DNA of 16,351 nt from Nitrospinota bacterium (GTDB lineage Bacteria > Nitrospinota > Nitrospinia > UBA9942), in contig JACQQJ010000140.1 in assembly GCA_016207035.1 (NCBI GenBank), positions 1 to 16,351 on the forward strand, in the 5' to 3' direction. Below are positions 1,620 through 16,318 of the stretch, piece after piece. Position 1 is the first letter of the stretch. Every line of letters starts with the position of its first letter. The notes beneath the pieces were generated by a model. That model was not told the origin of the DNA. It searched no databases and worked only from the letters and a program-made list of their open reading frames with translations. The position numbers and the translations under genes were made by a program.

Positions 1620-1636
1620 AAATCCTCCCTAAAATT

Positions 1637-1674: not shown

Positions 1675-1732
1675 ATATATCACCCCCTTTAAAAATTCAA
1701 ATTTGGGATTTAACTTTAAGGAAAGAGTATTG

Positions 1733-1747
1733 AAGAGAAATTCTCTT
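1733..1747. promoter_or_regulatory. 7-1-7 palindrome AAGAGAA-A-TTCTCTT in the glnA upstream region (candidate operator)
   Basis: This is a perfect inverted repeat about 115 nt upstream of the glnA ATG, inside a 408-bp intergenic region. Confidence 0.3.
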
Positions 1748-1943
1748 TTAAAGGGCTTTTAATGAATCTTTGAAGTAAAGGGTAATGGTAATGCTATCCC
1801 TAATTATCAACTCTCCCCTATTCCCACCAGAGCTGTTATCCCTTTACTCATGCAGCAAGACATTTAAATGAGAGTGAGGGATCATCTCCTTATCCATCAG
1901 AAAAATATTTGACAACCAAAAATGTTTATGTAAATAATATCAC

Positions 1944-2018
1944 AAGGGCAAGTCAGTTCAAAGGCAGAAGTGGTGGTTTAGGGGAACTGCTTCAACCTTT
2001 TTGTCCTGACTTGCCCTT
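1944..2018 (-). terminator. Long-range 13-bp inverted repeat between amt1 stop and glnA leader (possible terminator or attenuator)
   Basis: The arm aagggcaagtcag (1944-1956) pairs with ctgacttgccctt (2006-2018). On the minus strand the distal arm is followed by cattttt. It starts 9 nt after the amt1 stop. Confidence 0.3.
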
Positions 2019-2027
2019 TTAAATATA

Positions 2028-3443
2028 CTATATTATTCCTCTTGTAGTAGTTGTACCAACAAAATCAGGATACGCCTGCATCCCATGCTCTCCAATATCA
2101 AGTCCATTCCGCTCCTCATCCTCATCAACCCTTAAACCCATAGTAGACTTTATAACAAGCCACGCTATAGTACTCACTATCACCACATAGATCCCTACAG
2201 TTACTATACCTGTAATCTGAGAGATGAGCTGGGCTACACCTCCACCATATAAAAGCCCGGTTACGCCGCCTGTAACATTTGCTGCAAAAAGCCCTAAGGA
2301 TAATGTCCCCCATGTACCATTTACAAGGTGAACAGAGAGGGCACCTACAGGGTCGTCCACATGTATTTTATCAAAAAATAGAACAGCATAAACAACCAGT
2401 ATGCCAGCTACTATCCCTATAATAAATGATCCAAAAGGTGTTACCCAGTTACATGGAGCTGTAATAGCCACAAGTCCCGCAAGGATGCCATTTATGACCA
2501 TACTCAAATCTGGTTTACCGAGGGCAAGATAAGATGCATAGGTAGCTGCCACCCCTCCAACAGCGCCGGCTAAACAGGTATTTATAGTAACCCTTGAAAT
2601 GGCATCAGGGTCTGCAGCCATCGTACTTCCAGGATTAAAACCAAACCAACCAAACCACAGGACAAACATACCGAGTGTTGCCATACCCATGTCATGACCT
2701 GGTATTGCATTAACTTTGCCGTCATGAGTATATTTTCCTATCCTTGGTCCAAGCAGATAGGCACCTACTAACGCTGCCCATCCACCAATGCTGTGAACAA
2801 CTGTAGAGCCTGCAAAATCGAGAAAAGGGGTCTTCAAGGTAGCGAGCCATCCACCACCCCATATCCAGTGTCCTGCAACAGGGTATATAAATACAGCCAT
2901 AACTCCTGAAAAGACAAAGAAAGAGAAGTATTTTATCCTCTCTGCAACTGCACCTGATACAATCGTAGCCGCTGTTCCTGCGAAGACTAATTGAAAGATG
3001 AATTTAGCATAGAGAGGGACTCCTGTCCAGTTCAATGAGGGAAAGATTCCATTATACGCATCTCCCATAGCAGGGCTATTGTCAGCCCCATAGAGCATCC
3101 ATCCTGTCGCCCCGAAGAAGGGATTACTATTACTAAACATGATACCAAATCCTACAAACCAGTAGAAGATGGTAGTGACACAGAAGACTATAACATTTTT
3201 TGAAAGTATATTTACTGCATTTTTGGAACGGCACAAACCCGACTCTACCATAGCGAATCCAAGGTTCATAAAAAATACAAGGAAAGCAGTAAAAAGTACC
3301 CAGACCGTATCTGCTGCAAATTTAGCATCAAAGGATGGTGATGCAGAAGCTTGAGGGGCTTCTTCTGCAAAAACCAAGCCTGCAGTAAAAATTACCAGTG
3401 CTGATAAAATAAGCACAATACTAAAATACTTTTTTAAAAACAT
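2028..3443 (-). CDS. amt: Ammonium transporter (Amt/MEP family) with cleavable signal peptide
   Basis: The 471-aa ORF has a multi-TM Amt signature (region D..WVL.TAFLVFFM..GFA.VE.G, about 11 TM helices). The N-terminal signal MFLKKYFSIVLILSALVIFTAGLVFA is present. An RBS GGAGGGA lies upstream. Confidence 0.92.
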   Translation of the reverse strand: MFLKKYFSIVLILSALVIFTAGLVFAEEAPQASASPSFDAKFAADTVWVLFTAFLVFFMNLGFAMVESGLCRSKNAVNILSKNVIVFCVTTIFYWFVGFGIMFSNSNPFFGATGWMLYGADNSPAMGDAYNGIFPSLNWTGVPLYAKFIFQLVFAGTAATIVSGAVAERIKYFSFFVFSGVMAVFIYPVAGHWIWGGGWLATLKTPFLDFAGSTVVHSIGGWAALVGAYLLGPRIGKYTHDGKVNAIPGHDMGMATLGMFVLWFGWFGFNPGSTMAADPDAISRVTINTCLAGAVGGVAATYASYLALGKPDLSMVINGILAGLVAITAPCNWVTPFGSFIIGIVAGILVVYAVLFFDKIHVDDPVGALSVHLVNGTWGTLSLGLFAANVTGGVTGLLYGGGVAQLISQITGIVTVGIYVVIVSTIAWLVIKSTMGLRVDEDEERNGLDIGEHGMQAYPDFVGTTTTRGII

Positions 3444-3701
3444 ATTATTATCCCTCCCTCTGAAATTATTATGATTCAGATGCCCCTCCCTTCAGGGCGA
3501 GGTAATTCACCATAATAAGTATTTCCATTGTTTCCCCATTTTTTATCATATATATTTTGTTAAACCATTAATGACGCGATGAGGTTATAACCACGCCGGC
3601 TTGTGTTTCCCTGGTAACCAGAGTAACCTGGAATCCCCATAACATGAGACCATCATGTTCGATATCATGAGAAGTAACTTCCCCCTGTACAAAAATGAAG
3701 A

Positions 3702-5114
3702 TTACACCTCAATAGAGCTACGAGGTAGGTGATACGCATGTGTTCCGTGTTCCTCTACATCCAGTCCTTCTAATTCTTCTTCCGGAGAAACTCGCAAATT
3801 CCCCATCATTTTTAACGCGCCGAAAAGAATCAGCCCCATTCCAAAGGCCCAAACAAAGCATGTTACAACGCCAGTTGCCTGAGCAATTAAAAGCTTTGTG
3901 CCACCGCCAAATAAAAGTCCGTTACCTGTTGTGTTTGGCATGAACATATCCTGAGCAAAAAGCCCGAGACAAAGTGTTCCAAAAGCGCCGCACATTCCAT
4001 GCACTGGAATGGCTCCAACCGGGTCATCAATATGCAGCTTGTCTAACAAAAGAACGCCAAGGACAACCACGATGCCTGCAGCGCCACCAATAATAACAGA
4101 GGAAAGCGGGCTTACATATGCGCAGGGCGCCGTGATGGCGACAAGACCGGCAAGTGCACCGTTTAAAGACATGCCGATATCCCATCTGCCAAACATCCTT
4201 TTAGAAAAAAGCAGTGCTGTGATAACACCGGCGGCGGCTGCCAGATTGGTTGTGACGGCTATATGCGCGATGTTATCCACAGTTCCTGACATTGTAGAGC
4301 CGGGATTAAACCCGAACCAGCCGAGCCACAGAATAAACACGCCAAGCGTTGCCATGGGGAGATTATGCCCCAGAATGACGTTGACGCTTCCATCTTTGTT
4401 ATATTTCCCTATGCGAGGTCCTAACATTATAGAACCTGCGAGTGCTACCCACCCGCCTACGGAATGTACGACGGTAGAGCCTGCAAAATCCCACATTCCC
4501 ATTTTTGCAAGCCAGCCTGCTCCCCATACCCAGTGCCCGAAAATCGGATAAATAATCAAGCTGATGAAAATGCTGTACCACAGATACGCTGAAAACTTTG
4601 TGCGCTCCGCCATGGCGCCGGACACAATCGTTGCCGACGTTGCCGCAAACACAAGCTGAAACATATACTTTGCGTAGATGGACACATTTGCCCACGCTAT
4701 GGGTTCAAAACTCTTTATCGGGTCACCTGCAAGAAAAAAACCTGTCGTGCCGATAAAATCGTTTCCCGTTCCAAACATCAAGCCGAATCCTATTGCCCAG
4801 TACGCAATGGAGCCAAAGCAAAAATCAAGCAGGTTTTTCATCATAATGTTGTTTGTATTTTTCGCCTGTGTAAAACCTCCTTCCACATACGCAAACCCTG
4901 CCTGCATCCAGAACACAAGAAATGCCGTTACCAGCACCCACACCATGTCTATGGCGCGCGCATGAGCGTCTAATTTTGTGGATAAATCAGTAATGGTTGG
5001 CACTGCGTCCTCCGCAAGGGACAATAGCGGCTTGCATAAAAATGCTAAAAGCATAACCACAACCCACCCCGCAAAGAATTTCCATCTCTTTCTTTGATAC
5101 TTTTTTAAAACCAT
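3702..5114 (-). CDS. amt: Ammonium transporter (Amt/MEP family), paralog of downstream amt
   Basis: The ORF track extends to 5192, but the start is set at MVLKKYQRKRW (5114). This is based on the RBS AGGGAGGG and a leader about 40 nt long that is near-identical to the amt1 start region (ccatattattatccctccct). Length is 471 aa, the same as amt1. A strong Amt signature is present. Confidence 0.9.
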   Translation of the reverse strand: MVLKKYQRKRWKFFAGWVVVMLLAFLCKPLLSLAEDAVPTITDLSTKLDAHARAIDMVWVLVTAFLVFWMQAGFAYVEGGFTQAKNTNNIMMKNLLDFCFGSIAYWAIGFGLMFGTGNDFIGTTGFFLAGDPIKSFEPIAWANVSIYAKYMFQLVFAATSATIVSGAMAERTKFSAYLWYSIFISLIIYPIFGHWVWGAGWLAKMGMWDFAGSTVVHSVGGWVALAGSIMLGPRIGKYNKDGSVNVILGHNLPMATLGVFILWLGWFGFNPGSTMSGTVDNIAHIAVTTNLAAAAGVITALLFSKRMFGRWDIGMSLNGALAGLVAITAPCAYVSPLSSVIIGGAAGIVVVLGVLLLDKLHIDDPVGAIPVHGMCGAFGTLCLGLFAQDMFMPNTTGNGLLFGGGTKLLIAQATGVVTCFVWAFGMGLILFGALKMMGNLRVSPEEELEGLDVEEHGTHAYHLPRSSIEV

Positions 5115-5181
5115 ATTATTATCCCTCCCTTTAATCCCCATATATTTCCCCCTTAATGCAAAAATGGGGGATTGTAAGGGA

Positions 5182-5535
<354 letters not shown>

Positions 5536-5554
5536 TTAATTAACCCATCCTTAA

Positions 5555-5581
5555 TCCTCCCCTTAATGTAAGGGGACGGAG
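5555..5581 (-). other. Stem-loop (cccctta-atg-taagggg, extended by tcc/gga) between the OMP and glnK genes
   Basis: A perfect 7-bp GC-rich stem with a 3-nt loop. No T-run follows. Candidate processing or stability or regulatory element. Confidence 0.4.
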
Positions 5582-5590
5582 GAGGTGGGA

Positions 5591-6718
5591 TTAAAAATAG
5601 AAGAACACATTGACTGCCACCGTATCCTGTTCTTTTACATCTGCAGTCTTTTCTTTTTTATCAAATACAGGCTTATCAGATACATCATGACGATATTCAG
5701 GTCTTATAACGAGATACTTCTTTATAGCAAACTCAGGTGTAACCGTAATCTCCCACATATCCTGTTTTGTCAATGTCCTCGCACCATCATCATCCTTAAA
5801 TATCTCTCCCCTGAGATTGAGAGAAATCATATCATTTGCAACATATCTGATATAACCTGCAAGTCCTGACCATTTGCTATCACTATTCGGGCTCGATACA
5901 TTATTAGGATCCTTCTGTTCACTCCCATAGACATAGTCAAAAGCAAGGGTAAGACGCTCCAATAAAGTAAATGACAGATTTGCATCAAAGAGGCTTCTCA
6001 TATTGCTATCGTTGTTGGTCTGTTCTGGTCCCCACATGTATTTAATATTCAGCATAGTGTTTGGTATAGGTGTCAATGCCAGATGTGTGCAAATGGTCTT
6101 CCCCCTGTTATTATCCACTACATTGTCCCATCCATTTAAGACTTCTGCTGTTAGAGAAGCCATATCATTGAATTTATACACCCCTCTTAATCCGGTATGT
6201 GTGAATGGAATGGAATAGAAAAATAGAAGAGAGCGAGAGTAGTTGTAATTCCATGCATCGTATCCCTCAATTACCTCTGCCCCCATCTCTGTGATGTATT
6301 TTCCTAAATCAAGGGCAAGTCCAGTCCCTACAGGTAATACATATCGCACATAAGCCTGTTGGATATCAAAATCATCATCAGCAGCCTGTGTTACACCGGG
6401 CCAGGAAGAGCGTATAGCTTTAGGGATTGTATACCCATACATGATATCTGTCCTATAGCCAATATCCCCTGGCTCTATAGCCTCCTTTTGAAAAACCAGC
6501 TCTGCAACATCTACATTAAAACTATTTGCATTCTCATTAAAGGGTCTAAAATTTATCTTTCTTGAATCGGGGTCATTAAAATTATAGTTATATGCTGTCG
6601 AGACAAACCCATTTACCTTAATATCCTTTAAAAGATCTCCTGCATCTACAGCATAAGAAATGCTGCAAAATGAAATAACTAAAACAAAAGCTACTGTGAA
6701 AATTTTTAAACCTTTCAT
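5591..6718 (-). CDS. Outer-membrane beta-barrel (porin-like) protein encoded with glnK-amt
   Basis: A signal peptide MKGLKIFTVAFVLVISFCSISYA is present. Composition is beta-rich with alternating aromatics. The C-terminus ...VNVFFYF is a typical OMP signature. The start is set at 6718 (RBS AGGAGGG); the ORF track gives the alternative 6742. Confidence 0.7.
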   Translation of the reverse strand: MKGLKIFTVAFVLVISFCSISYAVDAGDLLKDIKVNGFVSTAYNYNFNDPDSRKINFRPFNENANSFNVDVAELVFQKEAIEPGDIGYRTDIMYGYTIPKAIRSSWPGVTQAADDDFDIQQAYVRYVLPVGTGLALDLGKYITEMGAEVIEGYDAWNYNYSRSLLFFYSIPFTHTGLRGVYKFNDMASLTAEVLNGWDNVVDNNRGKTICTHLALTPIPNTMLNIKYMWGPEQTNNDSNMRSLFDANLSFTLLERLTLAFDYVYGSEQKDPNNVSSPNSDSKWSGLAGYIRYVANDMISLNLRGEIFKDDDGARTLTKQDMWEITVTPEFAIKKYLVIRPEYRHDVSDKPVFDKKEKTADVKEQDTVAVNVFFYF

Positions 6719-6734
6719 TAATTTTACCCTCCTT

Positions 6735-6914
6735 TTAATCAACTAAGTTTTTAAGCCTCTTTATTTTGTCTATTACAACCTTTGATTTTGGCAGACTATC
6801 CCCCCTTTCCCATCTGGAGACTGTGGTTACTGTGACGCCAATCCTTCTTGCAAATTCATCCTGCGTCATTCCCAAGCTCTCCCTTATATTTTTTATTTCT
6901 TCTCTTTTGAACAT
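6735..6914 (-). CDS. XRE-family helix-turn-helix transcriptional regulator (small, about 59 aa)
   Basis: HTH_3 motif MTQDEFARRIGVTVTTVSRWERG. The ORF track extends to 6941, but a sigma-54-like promoter overlaps those codons, so the start is set at MFKREE (6914). Confidence 0.65.
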   Translation of the reverse strand: MFKREEIKNIRESLGMTQDEFARRIGVTVTTVSRWERGDSLPKSKVVIDKIKRLKNLVD

Positions 6915-6945: not shown

Positions 6946-6952
6946 GGAAGCC

Positions 6953-6990
6953 GTTTAAACAGTTTAAACCGATTAAACCGTTCAACCTGT
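6953..6990. promoter_or_regulatory. Array of palindromic GTTTAAAC-like repeats just upstream of the sigma-54 promoter
   Basis: The units are gtttaaac / a-gtttaaac / c-gattaaac / c-gttcaac, direct repeats of a self-palindromic octamer. Candidate regulator or architectural-protein binding sites. Confidence 0.35.
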
Positions 6991-7179: not shown

Positions 7180-8439
7180 CTATTCCTTTGTAAGCTCCTT
7201 TAATTGATTTAAAAGAAAAATGTCAAGGACTGGATTCCCTGATGTATGACTGCTGCCTCCTACAATAGCTGATGGAACTTTAACCTCTTTAAGTGCATTT
7301 GCCACCCCTATAAGGGTATCTCTCTTCATCTGCAGTCTGAGTTCAAGGGAATTGTCTGCCTTTGCCAGTGCCTGCCTCCACTCAGCCTCTTTTAGAGAGG
7401 CAATCCTCTTTCCTTCTGCTTCTTCCATAATCGCCTGTTTCTCAAGTCTTGCCTTCTCCAAAAATAGTTGTGCAGTCTCTTTCTCCCTTTGGGCATTGAT
7501 TAATGCAACTGTCTTCTCCTTCTCTGCCTCTATCGTTGACACCTCTGCCTCTTTTTCAGCACGTATCCTTGCCTCTAATCTCTGTGGTTCTTCTCTTGCC
7601 TTTGTCTCTGCCTGAAATTTCTCCTCCTCAGCCTTTGCAGTAATAGCATCCTGTTTTGCCTTTTCTGCTGCAATAATTGCATTATTCCTCTGCTGTTCTA
7701 ATAATCTCTGTTCATCAAACTTTGATTGGGACTGTTTATCATATTCAATCTTCTTTAAGGTAAAATTCCTGATAGCAATCCCGAATTTATCTGTAATTCC
7801 AGGCATTCTTACCGGTAACAAGATACCATTTTCTGTTTTTGTAAGAGGGATTAACATAATATTCCCATCTGTTACCCTTTTATCATAAGTAATCAGACCG
7901 TTCTGAAGACTATCAAATATATCCCTGATAAAATTCCCCCTCTCACGAATTGAGTCTGTGCTGCTATATGAGGCAGCCACGAGGGTCATCACAGTATTAA
8001 TATAGTTCCTCAATATCCTCTGCTGAAGATTATCTTCGTTTTGTGCCTCCTGGATGATCAATCTTATTTTTTCAGGGTCAGATGGCATTGTATACCGTAT
8101 CACCCCATTTATATTTGCAATGCCATTGTCCTTAAATACAACACTGATTGAATCAACAATCTTCCTCTCCTCTTTTTTTACCTTCTCTACATGATCTTCA
8201 AAAGTAACAGCCCCTGATACCCTGAACTTAGTTACTTCGCTGAACAACCCTTTCCAGTAAAGACCTGGATTTGTGATAATCTTTAATTCCCCACTTGGCC
8301 ACTTCTGAACTACAAGATAGTGACCGGTAGAGTTTTTTCCAAAGAGAGAATAGATTATCAACACCACCAGGATAGCTGGTATTAATTTTTTAAAGTTAAC
8401 CCTTTTCCATACAGGCTCTCTTTCTAATTCTGTATTCAT
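7180..8439 (-). CDS. SPFH/Band-7 (flotillin-like) membrane protein with C-terminal coiled-coil
   Basis: An N-terminal TM segment (LIPAILVVLIIYSLF) is followed by an SPFH-like core. A long E/A/K-rich coiled-coil tail (EKAKQDAITAKAEEEKFQAETKAREE...) is typical of flotillin/YqiK-like proteins. The start is at MNTELERE (8439) with RBS AGGAGGAGA. Confidence 0.7.
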   Translation of the reverse strand: MNTELEREPVWKRVNFKKLIPAILVVLIIYSLFGKNSTGHYLVVQKWPSGELKIITNPGLYWKGLFSEVTKFRVSGAVTFEDHVEKVKKEERKIVDSISVVFKDNGIANINGVIRYTMPSDPEKIRLIIQEAQNEDNLQQRILRNYINTVMTLVAASYSSTDSIRERGNFIRDIFDSLQNGLITYDKRVTDGNIMLIPLTKTENGILLPVRMPGITDKFGIAIRNFTLKKIEYDKQSQSKFDEQRLLEQQRNNAIIAAEKAKQDAITAKAEEEKFQAETKAREEPQRLEARIRAEKEAEVSTIEAEKEKTVALINAQREKETAQLFLEKARLEKQAIMEEAEGKRIASLKEAEWRQALAKADNSLELRLQMKRDTLIGVANALKEVKVPSAIVGGSSHTSGNPVLDIFLLNQLKELTKE

Positions 8440-8451
8440 ATCTCCTCCTTC

Positions 8452-8524
8452 AAAAAATAGCAATGAGCAACAAACAACAAGCAATGAGCAATGAGTAATG
8501 AGTAATAAGTTTTTTCCTCATTGC
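8452..8524 (-). terminator. Terminator-like hairpin built from tandem heptamers (GCAATGAG/TAATGAG) after the FGE-like gene
   Basis: On the minus strand, gcaatgagg ... (ctcattg)n ... gctcattgct is followed by attttttg. It lies 3' of the FGE-like stop and immediately 5' of the SPFH RBS. Confidence 0.4.
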
Positions 8525-8541
8525 TTTCCACTCGTCACTTT

Positions 8542-9465
8542 TCACTGTTTTTTGCTCATAGTTCGTTTAACGCACCTAAATCCAATGTCTATTCTGCATG
8601 CATTTGGCTTTTCTGTGTGGCGAAAAGAGACCCGCAGGGAATTTTTATCACTTTTCCACGACCCGCCTCGGATTACCTTTAGATGGTTATTAAGCCGTGG
8701 TCTTGGATTATTTTCCTTTCCATCCATATAAAGCTCGTATCCATCTGAAGTCCACTCCCACACATTTCCTGCCATATCATTAATTCCAAAACCATTGATA
8801 CTGTAGCTTCCGACCGGCATTATCCCCCCTTTGTAAGGGGGGGAATGGGAGGCGGGTAAGCCTCTCCAGTTAGATAGGTGGGTTTCAAAATTATTACCCC
8901 ATACATACCGCATACCTTCATAACCACCACGCGCAGCATATTCCCATTGTCTCTCAGTAGGGAGAGATTTCTGAGCCCACCTGGCATAGGCATCTGCGGC
9001 ATACCAGCTTACATATATTACAGGGTAGTTCTCCTTACCTTTTGGAAATTCAGAGCTATTCCAGTCCATGAGATAGTTTTCATCTGCCTCATCGAATTTT
9101 GGATTACCTTTCTGCCAGTGGGGATTGGCAAGTATAAATCTCTGATACTGAAGATAGATAACTTCATACTGATCCATAGAAAAGTCATCCAGCTCCACTC
9201 CGTGGAGAGGTCTCTCATCAAACTCGCCATCTTCACTCCCCATAGTAAATACCCCTGCTGGAATTTCAACCATTTCTTCAGAAAATTCCCCGTGCCCAGC
9301 CCCTTCTTCAAAGGGGGATGTTTGGAGATTCGCAGGGATTACCGAGACATCCTCAACCTGTTCATTCCAGTAAAATGTGATAAGTAAGGAGCAGGAGGCA
9401 AGGAGCAAGAACCCCAAAAATTTTATTCTGAATTCTGTATTCTGAATTCTGTCTCCTGTATTCAT
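8542..9465 (-). CDS. FGE/SUMF1-sulfatase-fold lipoprotein lacking the catalytic Cys pair (NirV-like)
   Basis: Hallmarks of the FGE fold are present (GNVWEWTSD, RGGSW, GFRCV). There is no CxxxxC after RGGS, so it is probably not a true formylglycine-generating enzyme. The N-terminus MNTGDRIQNTEFRIKFLGFLLLASC has a lipobox LASC. Its ATG overlaps the stop of the upstream octahaem gene (ATGA). Confidence 0.75.
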   Translation of the reverse strand: MNTGDRIQNTEFRIKFLGFLLLASCSLLITFYWNEQVEDVSVIPANLQTSPFEEGAGHGEFSEEMVEIPAGVFTMGSEDGEFDERPLHGVELDDFSMDQYEVIYLQYQRFILANPHWQKGNPKFDEADENYLMDWNSSEFPKGKENYPVIYVSWYAADAYARWAQKSLPTERQWEYAARGGYEGMRYVWGNNFETHLSNWRGLPASHSPPYKGGIMPVGSYSINGFGINDMAGNVWEWTSDGYELYMDGKENNPRPRLNNHLKVIRGGSWKSDKNSLRVSFRHTEKPNACRIDIGFRCVKRTMSKKQ

Positions 9466-10808
9466 TTCCCCTTATCCTTCCTCTCCCTTATCTCATTTAT
9501 CATTCTCTTCAATTCCACTCTCCCCCTTGCCAGCTCATAAAAACCGTGCCACTGGGTATAATCAGGACCCATCATGGATGCCCCCATCCTTGCCCTCCTC
9601 CCCTCATGGTGCCAGTATTCAAAGAATTTAAATTCCAAATCCTCATCAAATTTATCCTTTGTTAAATACCCCAGCTTATAAAGCTCGTCCATCTCCTTTT
9701 TTATAGGTTTATAGTATTCTTCATTATAAAGAGAGATCACATTATCAAACTGCTGGTAATATCCCTCCACCCAATTCTTTGAATGACATGATAGGCAGAC
9801 CATCTGCATCCTCTCCCTTTTGTTTTTCCAGTCCTTCCTCTTTTCAGAGAGGGGCCATTTAAGCTCCCATGAGAGTCTTTCACTCACATTATGAGATGGT
9901 TCAAGCATCCCTATTCCTGACATGTGACAGGTAGCACAGGTTGGTGCCCTGAAATATTTTGTATCCCATACAGAAGGTGCTACCTCCATATTCCATTTAT
10001 GTTTTTCTGAACTGTATATCACCCCATGTTTAGATTCCATATATATCTCATACTGTGGGTGGTCAGGACCCATATGGCATGTCCCGCATGCCTCCGGTGT
10101 CCTCGCCTCTGTAATTGAAAAGAGGTGTCGTGTATGACAGGCAGTGCATGACCCTTTGCTCCCATCGGGATTGACACGGCCTATTCCATTATTGGGCCAT
10201 GTATCTTTATCAAAAATTCCATTAGATTCGCTTCGCTCACTACGAGTTTTAACCTTTATAACTGACCCATGACACTTCTCACACCCCATAACTGCAGCCG
10301 CCTTTCCTTCTATTTTATAGGCAAGTGTATCATCACCTGCCCTGTCACCTTCAAGGACTTGTCCTGACCCTGAACTTGATTCAGGGGTTTCAGGATTTTT
10401 GATGAAAGAGACAGCCTTTGAATGCATAGATTCATTAAATTCCATAACCTGTTTTGGGTGGCATCTGGAGCAGTCCTTAGGACTTACAATAGCAGAGATA
10501 ACCTCACCTTCATGTTTTCTCGCATCTGCATCAGTAGTATCAGCCTGATGACAGTCTATACAGGTAACCTGTGCCTTTGCATGATTGCTCTTCTCCCAGT
10601 CATTGACAATTCCAGGGGACAATTGGCTATGACAGAGAATACATCTCTTTGCCACATCTATCTCCCCCTTTGTCTTCTTTATTGCAAGAGCATCGGAGGA
10701 AAAAAGCAGAACGTAGAATACAGAATACAAAATACAGAATAATAATATTATGCACCATCTCTTCTGACTTCTGACTTCTGACTTCTGACTTCTGTATTCT
10801 GTATTCAT
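9462..10808 (-). CDS. Octahaem cytochrome c, HAO (hydroxylamine oxidoreductase)-family-like
   Basis: There are eight CXXCH motifs (CILCH, CIDCH, CSRCH, CEKCH, CTACH, CGTCH, CATCH, CLSCH) in about 410 mature residues. A signal peptide ...FSSDALA|IKK is present. The start is taken at ATG 10808 (MNTEYRSQK...), 15 nt inside the ORF-track GTG. Its ATG overlaps the stop of the NrfH-like gene (ATGA). Confidence 0.8.
   Translation of the reverse strand: MNTEYRSQKSEVRSQKRWCIILLFCILYSVFYVLLFSSDALAIKKTKGEIDVAKRCILCHSQLSPGIVNDWEKSNHAKAQVTCIDCHQADTTDADARKHEGEVISAIVSPKDCSRCHPKQVMEFNESMHSKAVSFIKNPETPESSSGSGQVLEGDRAGDDTLAYKIEGKAAAVMGCEKCHGSVIKVKTRSERSESNGIFDKDTWPNNGIGRVNPDGSKGSCTACHTRHLFSITEARTPEACGTCHMGPDHPQYEIYMESKHGVIYSSEKHKWNMEVAPSVWDTKYFRAPTCATCHMSGIGMLEPSHNVSERLSWELKWPLSEKRKDWKNKRERMQMVCLSCHSKNWVEGYYQQFDNVISLYNEEYYKPIKKEMDELYKLGYLTKDKFDEDLEFKFFEYWHHEGRRARMGASMMGPDYTQWHGFYELARGRVELKRMINEIRERKDKGK
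10716..10803. repeat. Heptanucleotide tandem repeats in the first 14 codons of the octahaem gene, plus an inverted copy in the signal-peptide coding region
   Basis: Plus strand 10762-10803 is (tctgact)x4 then (tctgtat)x2. On the coding strand this encodes MNTEYRSQKSEVRSQKR. Plus strand 10716-10740 (gaatacagaatacaaaatacagaat) is its reverse complement and encodes the signal-peptide h-region. The two can form a hairpin of at least 13 bp spanning the start codon. Confidence 0.85.
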
Positions 10809-11353
10809 CAACTTTCCCTCCACATATGAACCAGGTTTTGATGGCAGTTCAGACAGCTTTTTACCTCTCCCCTTTTAAATGCCTTGTGCCCTAAGAGTCC
10901 GCCCCTTTGAAGCTCTGATGGAAAGAGATTTTTATGGCATTTGAGACATGCCTCAGACCTGATATTTTTTGCCGCAGACACTTTCCACTTTTGATGGTCA
11001 AAGTCTTCAGGTCTTAATAGGAAGTGCATAATAGTATCCTTCATACCCTGTCTAACCTTTGCATACCACTTATTCATTTCCCCAGGCGGCAGATGGCAGT
11101 CAGCGCAATCTGCCACTACCCCTCTGCTGCTGTCATAATGACTTGATTTAAGATACTGCTGATATGGCTCAATCATTTCATGGCATTGTGCCGAGCAGAA
11201 TTTATTTGTAGATGAATAATGAAATGAAATCGTTGTGAGACCATAAAATATTATCAACCCTGTCGTAGTCAGGATGACGATAGCACTTATCTGTACCCTG
11301 CTCGGGGAAGGTCTCTTAAAGCCCTCATCTATGTCTGCTCTGTTTTTATCCAT
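10808..11353 (-). CDS. NapC/NirT/NrfH-family membrane-anchored tetrahaem cytochrome c (quinol dehydrogenase)
   Basis: The 181-aa protein has an N-terminal TM helix (VQISAIVILTTTGLIIFYGLTTI). There are four haem motifs. The first is non-canonical, CSAQCH (CX3CH); the others are CADCH, CLKCH, CLNCH. Confidence 0.8.
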   Translation of the reverse strand: MDKNRADIDEGFKRPSPSRVQISAIVILTTTGLIIFYGLTTISFHYSSTNKFCSAQCHEMIEPYQQYLKSSHYDSSRGVVADCADCHLPPGEMNKWYAKVRQGMKDTIMHFLLRPEDFDHQKWKVSAAKNIRSEACLKCHKNLFPSELQRGGLLGHKAFKRGEVKSCLNCHQNLVHMWRES

Positions 11354-11375
11354 TAAAGATAAGAATAGGGTACTA

Positions 11376-11440
11376 GAGCACCAGTCACCAGTGCACCAGA
11401 AAAATATTTCTATTACTGGTGTTCTGGTGTTATGGTGCTC
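11376..11440 (-). terminator. Hairpin of octamer repeats NNCACCAG; likely terminator of amt3 and a repeat-family member
   Basis: The left arm gagcaccag-tcaccag-tgcaccag pairs with the right arm ctggtgtt-ctggtgtt-atggtgctc, separated by a 16-nt loop. It directly abuts the amt3 stop and is followed on the minus strand by T-rich sequence. Confidence 0.5.
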
Positions 11441-12790
11441 TTATTTTATATTTGTTATCTGGAAATCAGGGTATGCCGCTGCCGTATGCTCTGAATAATC
11501 AAGCCCGAGATACTCCTCCTCTTCTGATACCCTGAGCCCAATTGCCTTCTTGATTAAACTGAAAATCCCATAGGAAACGAAAAATGACCAGAGAAAGGCT
11601 ATAATACTGCCTAATAGTTGAATGCCTATATTCCCAATATTAAACATCTCACCTGTTTTAAATATACCAAGTGCTAAAGTCCCCCAAACACCACAGACCC
11701 CGTGAACAGAAATTGCTCCCACAGGGTCATCTATCCTTAATCTTTCAAACTGAAGAACAGAGAAAACGACAATAACCCCTGCAATTATACCTATAATTAC
11801 AGCCCATAATGGCTCTACATGGGCACAACCGGCAGTAATAGCAACAAGGCCTGAGAGGGCACCATTGAGGGTCATTCCCACATCAGGCTTGTTAAATTTA
11901 AACCATGCTGTAATCATACCTGATATTGCTGCTGCTGAACCTGATAAGGTGGTATTTATCATAATCTGGGCAATTTTACTCCCTCCCTCAAGGGTATTGC
12001 CGGCATTAAAGCCATACCATCCAAACCACAGGATGAGTGTTCCGAGGGCTGCGAGCGGTAGGTTATGTCCGAGTATGGGGTTAATTGTTCCGTCCTTTCT
12101 GAATTTTCCGCTCCTTGGACCAAGGACAATAGTCCCTGCCAGCCCTGCCCATCCGCCAATGGCATGTATTACCGTTGAACCTGCAAAGTCATGAAAACCA
12201 AGTTTCTCAAGCCATCCATCCCCATGATAAAAGCTCCCCCAGACCCAGCTCCCAAAGACTGGATATATGAATGATGACATAGCTGCTGTAAACATGAGTG
12301 AAGCAGAGAATCTTGTCCTCTCTGCCATAGCCCCTGATACTATGGCTGCTGTTGAAGATACAAAGACCAACTGATACATCCAGAAGGCAAAGAGCCATGG
12401 GTCACGGGACTCAGCATAATCATGCAAAAAAAAGCCTTCTATGCCAAAGAGTCCATTGGAAATCCCGAACATAATGCCAAAACCTACTGCCCAGAAGACA
12501 ATTGAACTAACTGCAAAATCCATCATATTCTTCATAATGGCATTAACTGCACTCTTTGCCCGTGTGAAGCCAATCTCCACCATGATAAACCCTGCCTTCA
12601 TGAAGAAGACAAGGATCGTGGCAATACATATCCAGACAATATCCAGATTTACCTGAACATCCTCTGATGTGATAATCCTCTCTGCTGAGGAATCATTCGC
12701 ATTGATAAAATTCCAGAAAAGAGACAGGATTAAAAATTTAAAAATTATTTTCATCCTCTTTTGTGAACCAAAGGCTTGTGAGAGTTTCAT
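11441..12790 (-). CDS. amt: Ammonium transporter (Amt/MEP family), third copy
   Basis: The 449-aa ORF has an Amt signature (D..W.......FFM..GF..VE.GF.R.K, multiple TM helices). A signal peptide is present. An alternative start is M13 at 12754. Confidence 0.88.
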   Translation of the reverse strand: MKLSQAFGSQKRMKIIFKFLILSLFWNFINANDSSAERIITSEDVQVNLDIVWICIATILVFFMKAGFIMVEIGFTRAKSAVNAIMKNMMDFAVSSIVFWAVGFGIMFGISNGLFGIEGFFLHDYAESRDPWLFAFWMYQLVFVSSTAAIVSGAMAERTRFSASLMFTAAMSSFIYPVFGSWVWGSFYHGDGWLEKLGFHDFAGSTVIHAIGGWAGLAGTIVLGPRSGKFRKDGTINPILGHNLPLAALGTLILWFGWYGFNAGNTLEGGSKIAQIMINTTLSGSAAAISGMITAWFKFNKPDVGMTLNGALSGLVAITAGCAHVEPLWAVIIGIIAGVIVVFSVLQFERLRIDDPVGAISVHGVCGVWGTLALGIFKTGEMFNIGNIGIQLLGSIIAFLWSFFVSYGIFSLIKKAIGLRVSEEEEYLGLDYSEHTAAAYPDFQITNIK

Positions 12791-12803
12791 TTAAATAAGG
12801 ATT

Positions 12804-12819
12804 AGCAAAATACATGCCG
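12804..12819 (-). promoter_or_regulatory. Sigma-54-like (-24/-12) element CGGCAT-N5-TTGCT upstream of amt3
   Basis: The minus strand reads CGGCATgtattTTGCT, the same core as the element at 6930-6945. The amt3 M1 ATG lies 14 nt downstream of the element, again implying a leaderless or near-leaderless start. Alternatively it serves the M13 start with a 39-nt leader. Confidence 0.4.
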
Positions 12820-12861
12820 TAAAAGATATAGGTGTGGATACCTTATAATGTGGGTTATATG

Positions 12862-12898
12862 AGAAAAAGCGGTAAGAAACTGCCTAATAATTAGGCAG
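12862..12898 (-). terminator. Rho-independent terminator after the cbb3 cluster
   Basis: A perfect hairpin ctgcctaa-taa-ttaggcag is followed on the minus strand by tttcttaccgctttttctc. Confidence 0.6.
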
Positions 12899-12964
12899 AT
12901 GATAAAGGATGTGACTAAACTTATAGCAGGAAGAATAAAAAAAGTCTATCTGGCAAATTATTTA

Positions 12965-13147
12965 TCATCTCCTGTAGTCCTGCCACTGGGTAGTATCAGG
13001 ATTAGTAGTCTTTAGCCAATGAGAAAAGTCAGGACGCCAGTATATTGCAAGATATATAAGACCCCAGATGATAAATATACCCCATATCAGCTTTATCCAG
13101 AGAGGGAGAGGATTATCCTGTTGTCCTATTTTTGTCTTTTCTTCCAT
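12965..13147 (-). CDS. Small single-TM membrane protein (60 aa), possibly CcoQ-like oxidase accessory subunit
   Basis: One hydrophobic helix (LWIKLIWGIFIIWGLIYLAIYW). It is adjacent to the preceding ORF with no gap, at the end of the cco cluster. No recognisable motif; assigned by position only. Confidence 0.4.
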   Translation of the reverse strand: MEEKTKIGQQDNPLPLWIKLIWGIFIIWGLIYLAIYWRPDFSHWLKTTNPDTTQWQDYRR

Positions 13148-13447
13148 TTAAGTCCCCCTCTCTATCTCTCGCATCTTTTCTTCCATCTCAAGGATTCTAT
13201 ACTTTGCCTTTTCCATATCTTTAAAATCTCCCTTCAGAAAACTCCAGAGAAAAAGAAAAAAGAAACCGATAGCAATGAGGAGATAGGTAATAACCTGAAT
13301 TACTGCAAAGCCTGTTACCTCACCCATGGGAACTGTTCTTGCAATCTCAAAAAATTTGTATACAAATGTCAGTGATGCAAAGGTAACCCCTGAAATTACC
13401 CATGTCCATAAAATAAAAACAGCCCACTCCTTTTTATCCTTCTTCAT
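13148..13447 (-). CDS. Small two-TM membrane protein (about 99 aa), unknown function, in cco cluster
   Basis: The start is at MKKDKKEW (13447), 4 nt after the ccoO stop, with an SD AAGAGGA 11 nt upstream. There are two hydrophobic helices and a charged C-terminal tail. Confidence 0.45.
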   Translation of the reverse strand: MKKDKKEWAVFILWTWVISGVTFASLTFVYKFFEIARTVPMGEVTGFAVIQVITYLLIAIGFFFLFLWSFLKGDFKDMEKAKYRILEMEEKMREIERGT

Positions 13448-13451
13448 ATTT

Positions 13452-14048
13452 TTATTTCCTCTTCCAGTTGCCAAGCCACTGCACATAGGTGACTACAGAG
13501 AGCCCTTTTTTATTTGGTCTTCCATTTTCGTCAAAGAACCATAGGTAGGAAGGCATTACTGAATCAGGCTGAACTGAATGAGGATCATAGAAATGAGCCA
13601 CATGCCAGTCATTGCTGTGCACACCTGCCTCCCGTATGAGGTCAGGGCCCACCCTCCTCGTACCGAATAACTGCGGCATCTGTAGTTCATTCTGATACTC
13701 AGAGGCAGTTGAAATATCTCCATACCTGACTTCTTCATTCGCTACAGGTCTCACATACTGGGAATGACAGTGCCAGCATGCCTCTGCAATGTAAGTATCT
13801 CTCCCCAATTTAAGTGCCTCAGCATAGGTAACTGGAGAGGGGTCTCCAAATGCCTTCTTAAACTCAACAGGGTAGTCTTCTGATAGTTGATAGAACTCAG
13901 AATTAATATCCTCTTTCACCAGCTCATCTATAGTCTTCATCGGTATATCTTTTAAGAAGATTATTGGACCCAGCATCTGGAAGATAAATCCGAGGAGAAA
14001 AAATCCAACCCCTGCGATGATAAATATAAAACTAAACCTCTCTTTCAT
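13452..14048 (-). CDS. ccoO: cbb3-type cytochrome c oxidase subunit II (CcoO/FixO), monohaem
   Basis: The 198-aa protein has an N-terminal TM helix, a single CWHCH haem site, and the CcoO-like region GPDLIREAGVHSNDWHVAHFYDPHSVQPDSVMPSY. Confidence 0.8.
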   Translation of the reverse strand: MKERFSFIFIIAGVGFFLLGFIFQMLGPIIFLKDIPMKTIDELVKEDINSEFYQLSEDYPVEFKKAFGDPSPVTYAEALKLGRDTYIAEACWHCHSQYVRPVANEEVRYGDISTASEYQNELQMPQLFGTRRVGPDLIREAGVHSNDWHVAHFYDPHSVQPDSVMPSYLWFFDENGRPNKKGLSVVTYVQWLGNWKRK

Positions 14049-14118
14049 GGTTTTCTTTAGTTCAGGAAATTATAAAAATTTACCACAGAAGCACGGAGAC
14101 ACAGAGAAAGACAGATAG

Positions 14119-14200
14119 GACACCAGATCACCAGAGCACCAGTAAAAAAACTGGTGACTGGTGCGACCCATCCACTGGATGGGTGCCCCGGACTGGTGAC
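14119..14200. repeat. NNCACCAG octamer-repeat hairpin element inserted between ccoN and ccoO
   Basis: The sequence is acaccag-atcaccag-agcaccag-t-aaaaaaa-ctggtga-ctggtgc, then hairpin acccatcca-ctg-gatgggt, then ggactggtgac. It belongs to the same family as 11376-11440. Confidence 0.6.
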
Positions 14201-14223
14201 CTTTTCTTTATAACCACTGTGCC

Positions 14224-15591
14224 TCAGTGTATCAGTGGTTTAATCAGGTTTTTGTTCTTCGCCGTCATAGAGAGATTATAAATTAAGGATATTATACCAC
14301 CGCTAATCATCAGCCCTGATAGAGTCCTTACAAACCAGAAGGGGACCGAGAACCGTATAGAATCCATAAATGGGTTAAGTCCCCACCATATAAAACCCTG
14401 CACAACACCTCCGATAGTAAGATCTATAAACATAAGGATGATTCCGAGTGTACAAAGCCAGTAAGCCCAGCCATTCAGGCTATGAGAATACCACTCTTTT
14501 CCTGTAAGTCTTGGCCAGAGTTCTGTAATTATACCCATGAGCCAGAAACTGAAGACACCGAACATTACCAGATGGGCATGAGCCACTACCCAGTCTGTAA
14601 AGTGGATGAGCTTCTGAGCTGTAAGGGTTGACTGTATAGCACACTGAAAACATGTGACCCAGTAAAATACCATTCCAGTATAAAACCATCTTATTGGATA
14701 GTTTGTCCTTAGATAGTCACCACTCCCTTTTAGTGTCATAATAAAATTTGCAAGGACACTGGTTACAACAACTTCTATGGCAATACTTGCCACCACTGCA
14801 CTGTATTGAACATGCATGGGGACAGGCGACCACATGAAATGATGGATCCCCTGCATGGGGTAGAAGAATGCAAGCCCCCAGAAACCCATTAGACTCAAGG
14901 TATGGCTCCAGATAGGTTTCTTGATTATAGTTGGGACGAAAAAATACATCAGCCCCCAGCCCAAAGGTGTAATAAGGAGTCCGACAAAGTCATGTATATA
15001 GTTTCCAGTAATTGCCGCACCTGCTGCCCCGGGGACAAAAAATTGCGGTATATAATTTCCCATGATATAGACCATAATAATCCAGACTAAAGCCCCTATG
15101 AAATACCACAATGAAACATAGAGGGGTGCATCCTTGCTGGACTTGAGTATTGGTGGGATAAAATTTGTAGCTAAGAGAAACAGTCCTAAAGTGATGAAGG
15201 GGTCAACGAATATCGGGGTCTCTCCAAATTCAATTGCCTGGGCATATCCACCAAGAATTCCTACTGCGGTAGCAAGGACAAGAATTTGAAGGAACCAGAA
15301 TATCAACCAGCTTAATTGCCTGCTTAAAACAGGATAGCCTGAGGTCCTCGGCACTGCCCAGTACATCCCTGATAAAAGACCATTGAGAAGCCATCCATAC
15401 GCAACGGCATTTGTATGGACCATCCTGACCCTGCCTGGAGAGAAAAATTCAATTCCTTGTAACGGATAATGGTTGAGAAACTGCAGGGAATATAAAAGCC
15501 CGGCAGTAATTGACATGATAAGAAAAATTAGCGCCGCAATAATATGTGCAGTGACGAGATTATAGTTTACAGGATTCTGTCTTTCATTCAT
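14224..15591 (-). CDS. ccoN: cbb3-type cytochrome c oxidase subunit I (CcoN), haem-copper oxidase C-family
   Basis: The 455-aa polytopic protein carries CuB and haem ligand motifs (YIHDF; FFYPMQGIHHF with Tyr six residues before HH, as in cbb3 cross-link Tyr; AHAHLVMFG). Its start overlaps the stop of the upstream cytochrome c gene by 8 nt. Confidence 0.8.
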   Translation of the reverse strand: MNERQNPVNYNLVTAHIIAALIFLIMSITAGLLYSLQFLNHYPLQGIEFFSPGRVRMVHTNAVAYGWLLNGLLSGMYWAVPRTSGYPVLSRQLSWLIFWFLQILVLATAVGILGGYAQAIEFGETPIFVDPFITLGLFLLATNFIPPILKSSKDAPLYVSLWYFIGALVWIIMVYIMGNYIPQFFVPGAAGAAITGNYIHDFVGLLITPLGWGLMYFFVPTIIKKPIWSHTLSLMGFWGLAFFYPMQGIHHFMWSPVPMHVQYSAVVASIAIEVVVTSVLANFIMTLKGSGDYLRTNYPIRWFYTGMVFYWVTCFQCAIQSTLTAQKLIHFTDWVVAHAHLVMFGVFSFWLMGIITELWPRLTGKEWYSHSLNGWAYWLCTLGIILMFIDLTIGGVVQGFIWWGLNPFMDSIRFSVPFWFVRTLSGLMISGGIISLIYNLSMTAKNKNLIKPLIH

Positions 15592-16318
15592 TTTTTCTCA
15601 TCGGTTTTAAACTTAAGAGAAATGATATTAAGTGCCACCTTTCTTCCTCAGCTATATCTGAGAATACAGGCATCGGTGTGCCTTCAATACCAGTAGTCAG
15701 TATTCTGAATATATCCCTTGGAGTTGAACCGCCTCTGTATATTCCCCTTTTAAAATTTCTTGGTTTGATTTTATTCCCCCACATATCTTCCAGTTCCTCT
15801 GCAGAAGAACCCCTCCCATCTCCAGTCTCACCATGACATAAATCACAGCCATTATCCTTATAAGCCTCCGCTCCCCTTTTAATAGATTCTGGAGAGTCTA
15901 TATAGAGAGGGACTGGAGGGATGTTGATTGATGCAGTAAGCCTCTCTTTGATCCATCTCGCTGAAAATGTCTTGATATATTCTATTACAGCCATCCTCTC
16001 TCGCTCAGGCACTAATACATAACTTGGCATGGAACTTCCAGGGAGTCCTTTCGTAATGGTGTTCATTAAATCTTCATCTGTAGGTAATGCACCCTGTGGA
16101 GTAGATTTAAATTTAAAGACACCTGTAGTAAAATCTCTCGGTTTAACAACTAAAAGTGTTGCTGCCTTACCTTTACCATCCCCTTTCTCACCATGACACC
16201 CTATACAGTATTTCTTATATACCTCATAACCTCTGTTTATTAATTCATCTGCCATTGCAAAGACAGGAATAAAAAATATACATGCAAAAAGAATTAATTG
16301 AGTTGTCCCTTTTTTCAT
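15584..16318 (-). CDS. Dihaem c-type cytochrome (class I, c4/CcoP-like soluble domain pair) with signal peptide
   Basis: The 244-aa protein has two CXXCH sites (CIGCH, CDLCH), each followed by a Met-containing segment (SSMP, GTPMP). An N-terminal signal MKKGTTQLILFACIFFIPVFAMA is present. It is translationally coupled to ccoN. Confidence 0.75.
   Translation of the reverse strand: MKKGTTQLILFACIFFIPVFAMADELINRGYEVYKKYCIGCHGEKGDGKGKAATLLVVKPRDFTTGVFKFKSTPQGALPTDEDLMNTITKGLPGSSMPSYVLVPERERMAVIEYIKTFSARWIKERLTASINIPPVPLYIDSPESIKRGAEAYKDNGCDLCHGETGDGRGSSAEELEDMWGNKIKPRNFKRGIYRGGSTPRDIFRILTTGIEGTPMPVFSDIAEEERWHLISFLLSLKPMRKNE

Follow-up and report, generated by a model that had tools for sequence, protein, structure and literature searches.

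The 16,351-nt contig JACQQJ010000140.1 of a Nitrospinota bacterium (assembly GCA_016207035.1), here called the window in its entirety, carries two intergenic hairpins made of tandem octamers with the core CACCAG, one (element A) between the cbb3 oxidase genes ccoN and ccoO and the other (element B) between an ammonium transporter gene (amt) and the gene for an NrfH-like cytochrome. These elements belong to a real, dispersed and rapidly exchanged family of interrupted palindromes that occurs in a few groundwater and sediment lineages, and the copy in the cco operon is a recent, nested insertion. In two metagenome-assembled genomes (MAGs) the same arms enclose a gene of the PF05635 family, and genes of this family are generally embedded in tandem arrays of 7-8-mers in several phyla. 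We consider it rather probable that the window elements are MITE-like copies (MITEs being miniature transposable elements with inverted repeats), lacking an open reading frame (ORF), of a small palindromic element related to a PF05635 cassette that resembles the intervening sequences (IVS) of 23S rRNA.

Structure and turnover of the window elements

The first-pass annotation, made from the letters of the window, had described two hairpins of tandem CACCAG octamers followed by inverted copies, and both are real: each has three (NN)CACCAG units facing three CTGGTG(NN) units. Element B (11375-11441) takes up the amt-nrfH spacer: it begins at the final base of the amt stop codon and stops 21 nt short of the nrfH ATG. 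Its layout is GAG-CACCAG-T-CACCAG-TG-CACCAG, a 16-nt loop (AAAAATATTTCTATTA) and CTGGTG-TT-CTGGTG-TT-ATGGTG-CTC, with the CACCAG cores at 11379-84, 11386-91 and 11394-99, the loop at 11400-15 and the inverted arm at 11416-21 and 11424-29 (CTGGTG) and 11432-37 (ATGGTG). One unit is a 7-mer and one inverted core has a single mismatch. In blastn comparisons, element B matches about 45 copies of the family described below. Element A (14118-14201) reads GGA-CACCAG-AT-CACCAG-AG-CACCAG, the loop TAAAAAAA, CTGGTG-A-CTGGTG, 29 nt and CTGGTG-ACC, with CACCAG cores at 14121-26, 14129-34 and 14137-42 and CTGGTG at 14151-56, 14158-63 and 14193-98. The third inverted unit has been pushed away by a nested hairpin repeat of 26 nt (GACCCATCCACTGGATGGGTGCCCCG, 14165-14190), which is inserted in the 3' arm, forms an inner stem-loop in the predicted fold of the element and of which an exact copy is present at an unrelated place in the Nitrospinota MAG JACQEW01 (locus L020, about 940-965). 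With one mismatch allowed, the double-octamer motif CACCAGNNCACCAG occurs five times in the window, where 0.05 occurrences are expected.

Both elements are predicted to fold far more stably than shuffled sequences (z from -4.9 to -7.4). Values for element B are -35.2 kcal/mol on the - strand and -40.1 kcal/mol on the + strand (z about -7.3), and those for element A are -48.0 and -45.8 kcal/mol, respectively (z -4.9 and -6.1). The complete ccoN-ccoO gap of 175 nt folds at -71.3 kcal/mol (z -5.3) with an additional outer stem, since element A is itself enclosed by the arms of an older octamer hairpin on the - strand. The 3' arm of the latter (TGTCTTTC-TCTGTGTC-TCCGTGCT-TCTGTGG) lies at 14083-14113, and a remnant of its 5' arm (ACACTGAG-GCACAGTGG) at 14214-14230, overlapping the ccoN stop codon (14224-14226). 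CTCTGYG arrays akin to this outer 3' arm are present in JACQEW01. Between the outer hairpin and ccoO lies a leader (GTAAATTTTTATAATTTCCTGAACTAAAGAAAACC, 14049-14082, - strand) that is nearly identical in the four same-species strains and has no Shine-Dalgarno (SD) sequence; the 9-16 nt spacers of more distant relatives contain GGAG. A promoter scan called no sigma-70-like site in this leader. A TATAAT within the insert was also considered as a ccoO promoter and rejected, as it has neither a -35 box nor a TG extension. When the window was searched with Rfam at gathering thresholds, only a tRNA at 6-80 and no rRNA was returned, and an E-value search of 11300-14300 gave only a chance match to a snoRNA (E 0.76). 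The older hairpin around element A and the nested one within it had not been part of the first-pass annotation, and neither had the other 7-9-mer families of the window or the link to PF05635.

That annotation had also taken the ccoN-ccoO gap to be unusual and the element in it to be an insert, which comparison with relatives supports. Four relatives with 75-82% identity in CcoN have the same order cytochrome c-ccoN-ccoO with gaps of only 9, 16, 15 and 10 nt, and no such hairpins were found in their 5-17 kb loci. Three further contigs stem from the same species (L187, L188 and L189; flanks 97.6-98.2% identical to the window). Their gaps measure 110, 110 and 80 nt, and the CACCAG element is missing from all three. 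In L189 the spacer is occupied by a simple hairpin whose octamers belong to another family (CCACAAAG-ACACGAAG-ACACTAAG, a loop and TCTTTATT-TCTTTGTG-CCTTAGTG-TCTTGGTG), with the 3' arm of which the outer 3' arm of the window aligns; L187 and L188 contain two related 5' units followed by a (CCGTTTAAA)x3 array, and in the window the CACCAG hairpin is inserted into the loop between the outer arms. At its end (3381-3520), contig L187 repeats its own ccoN-ccoO spacer and the 3' end of ccoN in inverted orientation, which is probably an assembly artefact caused by the palindrome.

The second spacer behaves in the same way. In the same-species strain L190, where the gene order amt-nrfH-hao-FGE is that of the window and the nrfH-hao junction is 98% identical, a GTGACA/TGACAC hairpin stands in place of element B. 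In the more distant L192, whose NrfH is 82% identical, this position is taken by a nested element made of ACACGAAT/ATTCGTG and ACAGGAT/ATCCTG. Further downstream, in the spacer between the FGE-sulfatase and Band-7 genes, a GTGTCA hairpin of L190 replaces an AGCAATG/CATTGCT array of the window, and the FGE N-terminus differs between the two strains, again at arrays. Structural differences between strains are therefore concentrated at tandem-repeat elements, and the presence of different hairpin families at the same spacers in strains of about 98% identity points to active, site-reusing exchange in uncultured groundwater Nitrospinota. In L190 the ORF of the public NrfH gene call (1359-1961) runs on through the hairpin and is therefore 19 amino acids too long.

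The CACCAG family and the PF05635 genes within its arms

Public genomes, one per species, were scanned with the pattern CACCAGNNCACCAG-N(4-30)-CTGGTG-N(1-2)-CTGGTG, for which, as a 24-base hairpin pattern, we estimate about 0.2 matches by chance. It matched 91 genomic stretches, 40 in JACQEW01, 27 in 'bacterium Yes70-11' and the rest mostly in MAGs of Omnitrophota and Planctomycetota. The statistics exclude the matches in Nocardia, Chloroflexi and Thermoplasmatota, which appear to be unrelated perfect palindromes or repeats. The earlier suggestion of a small repeat family similar to repetitive extragenic palindromic (REP) sequences or MITEs is borne out by the 113 hairpins parsed from these 91 loci plus the window; 31 are located in Yes70-11 and at least 53 in the groundwater sister MAG JACQEW01. 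No coding DNA is shared between the window and the family loci, which have the repeats alone in common. A scan of viral contigs with the hairpin pattern gave no match and thus no link to phages.

Units are of the types [AG|TG|AA|GG]CACCAG or, as 7-mers, TCACCAG and ACACCAG; two to seven occur per arm, 4 + 4 being the commonest arrangement. The elements are 50-85 nt long and end in GAG, GTG or GGT next to CACCAG. Their flanks are AT-rich, often of the form TTA...TAA, and possibly part of the palindrome. The order of spacer types varies among copies, which nevertheless have a few loop families in common, for example TAAAGAATATATTT. Nesting is seen in the window and in L004, L026, L066 and L076. 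According to crude ORF calls, 51 of the 62 classifiable copies are located between co-directional genes, 7 between convergent and 4 between divergent ones. Where flanks were inspected, most copies start no more than about 10 nt past the upstream stop codon, and the largest single class has about 11 nt between the last core and the next ATG. Mimicry of an SD sequence by the GGTG(A) units was considered and dropped, an SD-like motif being present between stem and ATG in only 12 of 51 cases, and the likeness of CTGGTGG to the Escherichia coli Chi site (GCTGGTGG) was judged coincidental, as CTGGTG is followed in most units by C, A or T and not by G.

The spacers that face each other in register are complementary in 15 of 185 cases (8%), as compared with about 17% in registers shifted by one or two units, so that the stem would be a chain of 6-bp helices separated by enforced 2x2 or 1x2 internal loops. 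Two 7-mer units stand opposite each other in only 4 of 185 cases. Judged by these spacers, the CACCAG stem is not a decayed perfect palindrome. That the stems are kept imperfect, with spacer complementarity below chance, suggests that a folded structure is recognised, as opposed to simple pairing.

CACCAG is one family of many in JACQEW01, where about 250 kb (L007-L086) contain 166 further tandem 7-8-mer arrays with many different cores (CACAAAG, ACACGAAT, GCAAGA, GATTTAC, GAGTTAA, GCAGTAG and others); many of these form inverted pairs. In Yes70-11 (L087, L090, L054, L008, L027 and L089), short 2 + 2 CACCAG hairpins that have a TTAA loop lie between ATGAAAGACGTTGCAATCAGTCC and CGTCGCAATCAGTTTCC, and this second flanking repeat suggests a composite element.

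In two MAGs, the CACCAG arms enclose a gene for a PF05635/TIGR02436 protein, i.e., a 23S rRNA IVS protein of the Avd-like kind. In L046 (JACQEW01), an ORF of 117 amino acids, located between a gene of the flagellin family and csrA, begins 1 nt past a four-unit CACCAG arm, and its stop codon abuts a four-unit CTGGTG arm. The ORF in L004 (Yes70-31) is 82% identical and lies between a nine-unit arm and a CTGGTG unit with a nested hairpin. Both proteins score far above the cut-offs for PF05635 (120 and 125 bits; cut-off 33.8) and TIGR02436 (109 bits; cut-off 24), are distantly Avd-like and are homologous to the proteins in PDB entries 2GSC (E 7e-18) and 2RLD (E 8e-8), each of which contains five chains.

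When metagenomes were scanned with the loop protein, 80 loci with 62-86% identity were obtained, 69 of them non-redundant, and the genes were almost uniformly flanked by tandem arrays. A change of core in one arm is matched in the other (CACCAG/CTGGTG, CACAAG/CTTGTG, CATAAG/CTTATG and CCCCAG/CTGGGG here, and GGGTGTA/TACACCC in the cultured Calothrix mentioned below), and one clade has AGCTTG-type arrays in direct orientation. Across the 69 loci, the mean energy of the arm duplex is -49.5 kcal/mol as opposed to -32.8 kcal/mol for shuffled arms, and 56 of them have a best period of 7-8 on both flanks. A strict detector found arrays beside 53 of 66 PF05635 genes (80%) and beside 25 of 105 other ORFs of the same loci (24%); arrays on both sides were recorded for 19 of the 66 and for a single one of the 105 (Fisher p = 3e-8). 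Neighbouring genes are mostly co-directional with the PF05635 ORFs (50/60 upstream, 48/54 downstream). The comparison of sense and antisense arm duplex energies gave 41 versus 28 and was borderline only (p = 0.06).

The association extends to cultured bacteria, in which arrays accompany all ten PF05635 genes that were checked. The arrays are (TCAGGAG)n ... CTYCTGA on Nostoc punctiforme plasmid pNPUN02, similar TCAGAAK/CTCCTGA heptamers on plasmid C of Anabaena variabilis, GGTGACA/TGTCACC in Anabaena sp. 90, GGGTGTA/TACACCC in Calothrix NIES-22, GGAGATAA/TTATCTCC in Picosynechococcus PCC 7003, AAGGGAA/TTCCCTT in Geminocystis and GAGGACGGAT-type/ATCCGTCCTC-type units in Azospirillum lipoferum; Gemmatirosa and Pseudanabaena have direct arrays, and Nostoc PCC 7120 has an array downstream only. 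Several of these four-helix-bundle genes and their arrays are located inside CRISPR-cas operons (L183, L184 and L179; cyanobacterial plasmids), namely between cas10/cmr2 and cmr3 in Picosynechococcus PCC 7003, between cas6 and cas4 in Pseudanabaena and beside cas4 in Anabaena sp. 90. A full-text search of an incomplete literature collection found no paper that links PF05635 genes to flanking tandem arrays.

Origin of the elements and alternative explanations

The explanation that we prefer starts from arms that are runs of 7-8-nt units with an invariant hexamer, CACCAG on one side and CTGGTG on the other, and variable spacers of 1-2 nt. These arms would be the cis-acting part, and a single-stranded form would fold into 6-bp helices with obligatory internal loops. 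They would probably be recognised by a trans-acting factor, for which the pentameric PF05635 protein is the prime candidate. The short hairpins would be internally deleted, MITE-like derivatives of the IVS-like cassette or, alternatively, short hairpins and cassette may use the same landing sites. In the host, the elements would be passengers, and any effect on the cco and amt-nrfH transcripts incidental: transcribed within the operon, they would form a strong interrupted hairpin between cistrons that might be cleaved by RNase III or act as a barrier at 3' ends, by analogy with rRNA intervening sequences, and that would be neither a terminator nor a device specific to cco.

Several points weigh against this derivation. 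No transposase or recombinase was identified for the elements, and no enzymatic activity is known for PF05635 proteins. The gene is present in just 2 of about 115 CACCAG hairpins, and the approximately 250 kb of JACQEW01 sequence contain many array families and just one PF05635 gene. The causality could be reversed, with the PF05635 gene being another passenger that, like IS110 elements and other hairpins, lands in hairpin loops; IS110 and IS481 elements adjoin comparable sites in Geobacter. At about a quarter of the PF05635 loci the arrays are direct and not inverted. The one comparable insertion, that of element A, is flanked by AAAA and TATC, and no target-site duplication is apparent there. 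An arm-proximal 6-mer, mostly TCTTTA, is common to 31 of 92 loops and the 3' junction of the PF05635 ORF; as a lead that has no proper null model behind it, this argues only weakly for ORF-less derivatives. Finally, the window organism is covered by one contig, and the sister MAG JACQEW01 served as a proxy for genome-wide counts.

A wider proposal, which we put forward tentatively and regard as rather doubtful, is that PF05635/TIGR02436 proteins are trans-acting partners that bind tandem 7-8-mer arrays and help to maintain or mobilise them. A single gene-plus-array module might then underlie four phenomena that have so far been dealt with one by one: the short tandemly repeated repetitive (STRR) sequences of cyanobacteria, rRNA intervening sequences with an ORF, the Geobacter sites ascribed to a global regulator and the window hairpins.

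It appears unlikely that the arrays are binding sites at the DNA level for a nucleoid-associated or global regulator protein similar to integration host factor (IHF) or HU, as has been proposed for Geobacter metallireducens. Invariant hexamers, free spacers, about four units per arm and the occurrence in both orientations do resemble a repeated protein-binding site, the Geobacter sites occupy the nifD-nifK and proB-proA intervals, and Nostoc heptamer arrays alter promoter output, for which an interacting partner has been proposed. However, the complementarity of the arms is maintained across families by covariation, which a one-sided binding site would not need, and the swapping of families at one spacer between strains argues against a gene-specific regulatory logic. 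If the binder were PF05635, this explanation would merge with the one that we prefer.

The first-pass annotation had suggested a role of the hairpin in the cbb3 operon in differential subunit stoichiometry or mRNA processing. Such a host regulatory RNA, retained so that mRNA processing, differential stability or translational uncoupling can adjust the CcoN:CcoO ratio, is distinctly unlikely. REP sequences and IVS stems are known to influence RNA stability or to be substrates of RNase III, the hairpin is placed between cistrons and folds strongly, and all four same-species strains retain some hairpin in the ccoN-ccoO spacer together with the conserved SD-less ccoO leader. Yet the hairpin family differs among strains with 98% identical flanks, the sister strains having unrelated hairpins at both spacers; relatives at 75-84% identity lack any element; and members of the same family occupy more than 100 sites between unrelated pairs of genes. 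In addition, fold stability does not favour the strand corresponding to the host mRNA (23 versus 24 copies, p = 0.92), so that tuning to the host mRNA can be rejected. Given the family swaps and this lack of tuning, a cco-specific regulatory role is unsupported. The orientation of the loop relative to host transcription was likewise not significant (11 versus 5 after de-duplication).

Structure-specific recombination sites that act in single-stranded form, in the manner of REP sequences and their associated tyrosine transposases (RAYTs), of IS200/IS605 elements or of integron attC sites, would explain the cassette-like replacement at fixed spacers, and we regard them as improbable. The mismatched spacers between 6-bp helices appear obligatory, hairpins are replaced precisely by other hairpins and become nested, and the small ORF in the loop is promoterless and usually co-directional with its neighbours. 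The fold is also asymmetric in an element-intrinsic manner: the A-form strand, with the loop ...ATTCTTTA, gives the more stable fold in 24 of 33 copies (p = 0.003), a statistic that overstates independence because the copies are related. Against such sites, the element ends have no conserved GTAG (REP) or GTTRRRY (attC) motif, and no Y1 transposase or integrase is consistently nearby in the few loci whose neighbours were looked at.

Hardly credible, finally, is the reading of element B as a Rho-independent terminator of amt (amt3 in the first-pass annotation), with an ordinary drifted spacer in cco: a stable, GC-containing hairpin does directly follow the amt stop codon, but neither window stem is followed by a U-tract on the transcribed (-) strand, a terminator scan near element B returned only a 5-bp partial site (11382-11369), runs of at least four T after the stem are rarer on the transcribed strand throughout the family (6/51 versus 15/51 on the opposite strand), and nrfH starts 21 nt downstream in a gene order that is conserved in L190.

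Genomic setting and comparison with known systems

All genes near the two elements are located on the - strand, and their calls were confirmed by Pfam. The cbb3 oxidase operon consists of genes for a dihaem cytochrome c (15584-16318), which is placed ahead of ccoN, for CcoN, i.e., subunit I (14224-15591; PF00115, E 8.7e-61; 100% identical to protein MBI4378696.1), for CcoO (FixO; 13452-14048; PF02433, E 2.7e-34) and for a FixS-like protein (13148-13486). It is followed by amt upstream of element B (11441-12790; PF00909, E 2.7e-117) and, downstream of it, by the genes for the NrfH-like NapC/NirT cytochrome (10808-11353; PF03264, E 9.5e-31), a multihaem HAO-like protein (9462-10823), an FGE-sulfatase-domain protein (8542-9465) and a Band-7 protein (7180-8484). 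The oxidase operon thereby adjoins a nitrogen-centred gene set (207-6742 and 8542-12790) that comprises glnA, three amt genes, glnB for PII and genes for an OmpL-like porin, NrfH, the HAO-like and the FGE-sulfatase-domain proteins.

Besides CACCAG, the window contains several other families of 7-9-mer arrays, including MTYCTGA-type (CTTCTGA) arrays and TCTCCGTG-like units. A heptamer hairpin of the same kind and another family ((CAGAAGT)n/(CAGAATA)n facing (CTGTATT)n on the - strand, 10715-10806) sits within the HAO-like ORF, after an SD sequence (GGAGGG) and the ATG at 10808. The (CAGAAGT)n units are translated into charged SQKSEVR repeats and the inverted (CTGTATT)n units into the hydrophobic core of a signal peptide (ILLFCILYSVFYVLLF). 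Strain L190 has the region (10690-10830, - strand) at 98% identity, so that a repeat hairpin seems to have been turned into coding sequence. The starts of the Band-7, FGE-sulfatase and HAO-like genes (8439, 9465 and 10808, - strand) all open with ATGAATACAG(A/G)A, encoding MNTE, MNTG and MNTE, and their start codons lie in or beside GAATACA/CAGAATA heptamer arrays. The AGCAATG/CATTGCT array in the FGE-Band7 spacer (8459-8533) has copies in JACQEW01 loci. A 9-mer array (CCGTTTAAA, 3.6 units) upstream of a small helix-turn-helix gene (6951-6982) is of the type that also fills the ccoN-ccoO spacer in L187 (about 2195-2225) and L188, and (AACTTTC) x5, which is (GAAAGTT)n on the - strand (1637-1670), is located directly upstream of glnA, between the SD sequence and the promoter region.

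Operon expression and genome plasticity are both shaped by small palindromic repeats, and repeats with arms of tandem 7-8-mers have so far received only passing mention in one genome paper. The class is poorly described, and what merits further work is its association with PF05635. In Nitrospinota and also in Nostoc, Azospirillum and Gemmatirosa, genes of this family lie between such arms, which provide a candidate ligand for a family of unknown function with solved pentameric structures. Nostoc punctiforme, Anabaena variabilis and Nostoc PCC 7120 offer cultured and genetically tractable models for the role of STRR-type repeats. For annotation, the arrays call for caution because ORF callers read through them, as in the NrfH of L190, and because they can turn into coding sequence.

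REP sequences and bacterial interspersed mosaic elements (BIMEs) are palindromes of 20-40 nt with a conserved GTAG or similar tetranucleotide at the 5' end that are served by a RAYT (TnpA_REP) gene and are a known insertion target of the IS110 family. The CACCAG elements share with them that they are short, extragenic, imperfect palindromes of high copy number, often located between co-directional genes of an operon. They differ in their greater length, the internal repetition of their arms and the lack of a GTAG end, and at the loci examined no RAYT was seen, the associated gene being PF05635. The Correia or Neisseria miniature insertion sequence (NEMIS) elements of Neisseria and the cyanobacterial Nezha are non-autonomous MITEs with inverted repeats that are intergenic, co-transcribed and folded into hairpins in the mRNA. 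A comparable pair of ORF-less and ORF-bearing forms is suggested for the CACCAG elements. In contrast to MITEs, however, their arms are tandem arrays and not unique terminal inverted repeats, neither a TA nor any other target duplication was detected at the single comparable insertion, and there is no transposase-bearing parent, as the only ORF between identical arms, PF05635, does not encode a transposase.

The paired tandem sites of Geobacter metallireducens fall into three classes (GTTGCTYN x4, TCTCCGTS[Y] x3 and MTYCTGA x5; Aklujkar et al. 2009, PMC2700814). Some of them are located between nifD and nifK or proB and proA, with IS110 and IS481 elements adjoining, and they have been proposed as IHF/HU sites (PMC2700814). 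Like the elements described here, which have 3 + 3 units in both window copies, they consist of three to five tandem 7-9-mers on one strand with a matching array on the other, are multicopy and intergenic, also within operons, and occur in several sequence classes per genome. The core CACCAG sets the window family apart, and the Geobacter report contains no link to PF05635, no turnover between strains and no analysis of hairpins (PMC2700814).

The IVS of Coxiella is described as a selfish element in which a 28-bp stem, cut by RNase III, encloses an ORF for S23p, i.e., PF05635 (PMC4990558). In Leptospira and Coxiella, elements whose complementary termini pair into a long stem around such an ORF of about 120 amino acids are regarded as horizontally moved, ORF-less IVS stem-loops exist as well, S23p proteins form pentameric toroids, and it is an old hypothesis that the ORF aids mobility (PMC4990558); PF05635 also resembles Avd of diversity-generating retroelements (PMC10053308). 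Complementary termini around a PF05635 ORF are equally found in L046, L004 and the metagenome loci, and the window copies would correspond to forms without ORF. Unlike the IVS, which reside in helices 9, 25 or 45 of 23S rRNA, the window elements are located in mRNA spacers between protein genes, and the stems are made of tandem 7-8-mers with mismatched spacers.

In Beggiatoaceae, TAACTGA heptamer arrays are positioned just upstream of start codons (MacGregor, PMC4679880). These arrays and the cyanobacterial STRR sequences are tandem 7-mers in intergenic DNA near start codons, with several families in each genome and a patchy occurrence across the phylogeny that suggests transfer, and they resemble the CACCAG elements in this respect (PMC4679880). 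In cultured cyanobacteria, arrays of the STRR type flank four-helix-bundle genes. The STRR and Beggiatoaceae arrays have mostly been described as one-sided and direct, whereas the CACCAG family is characterized by 8-nt units in an inverted pair that forms a hairpin.

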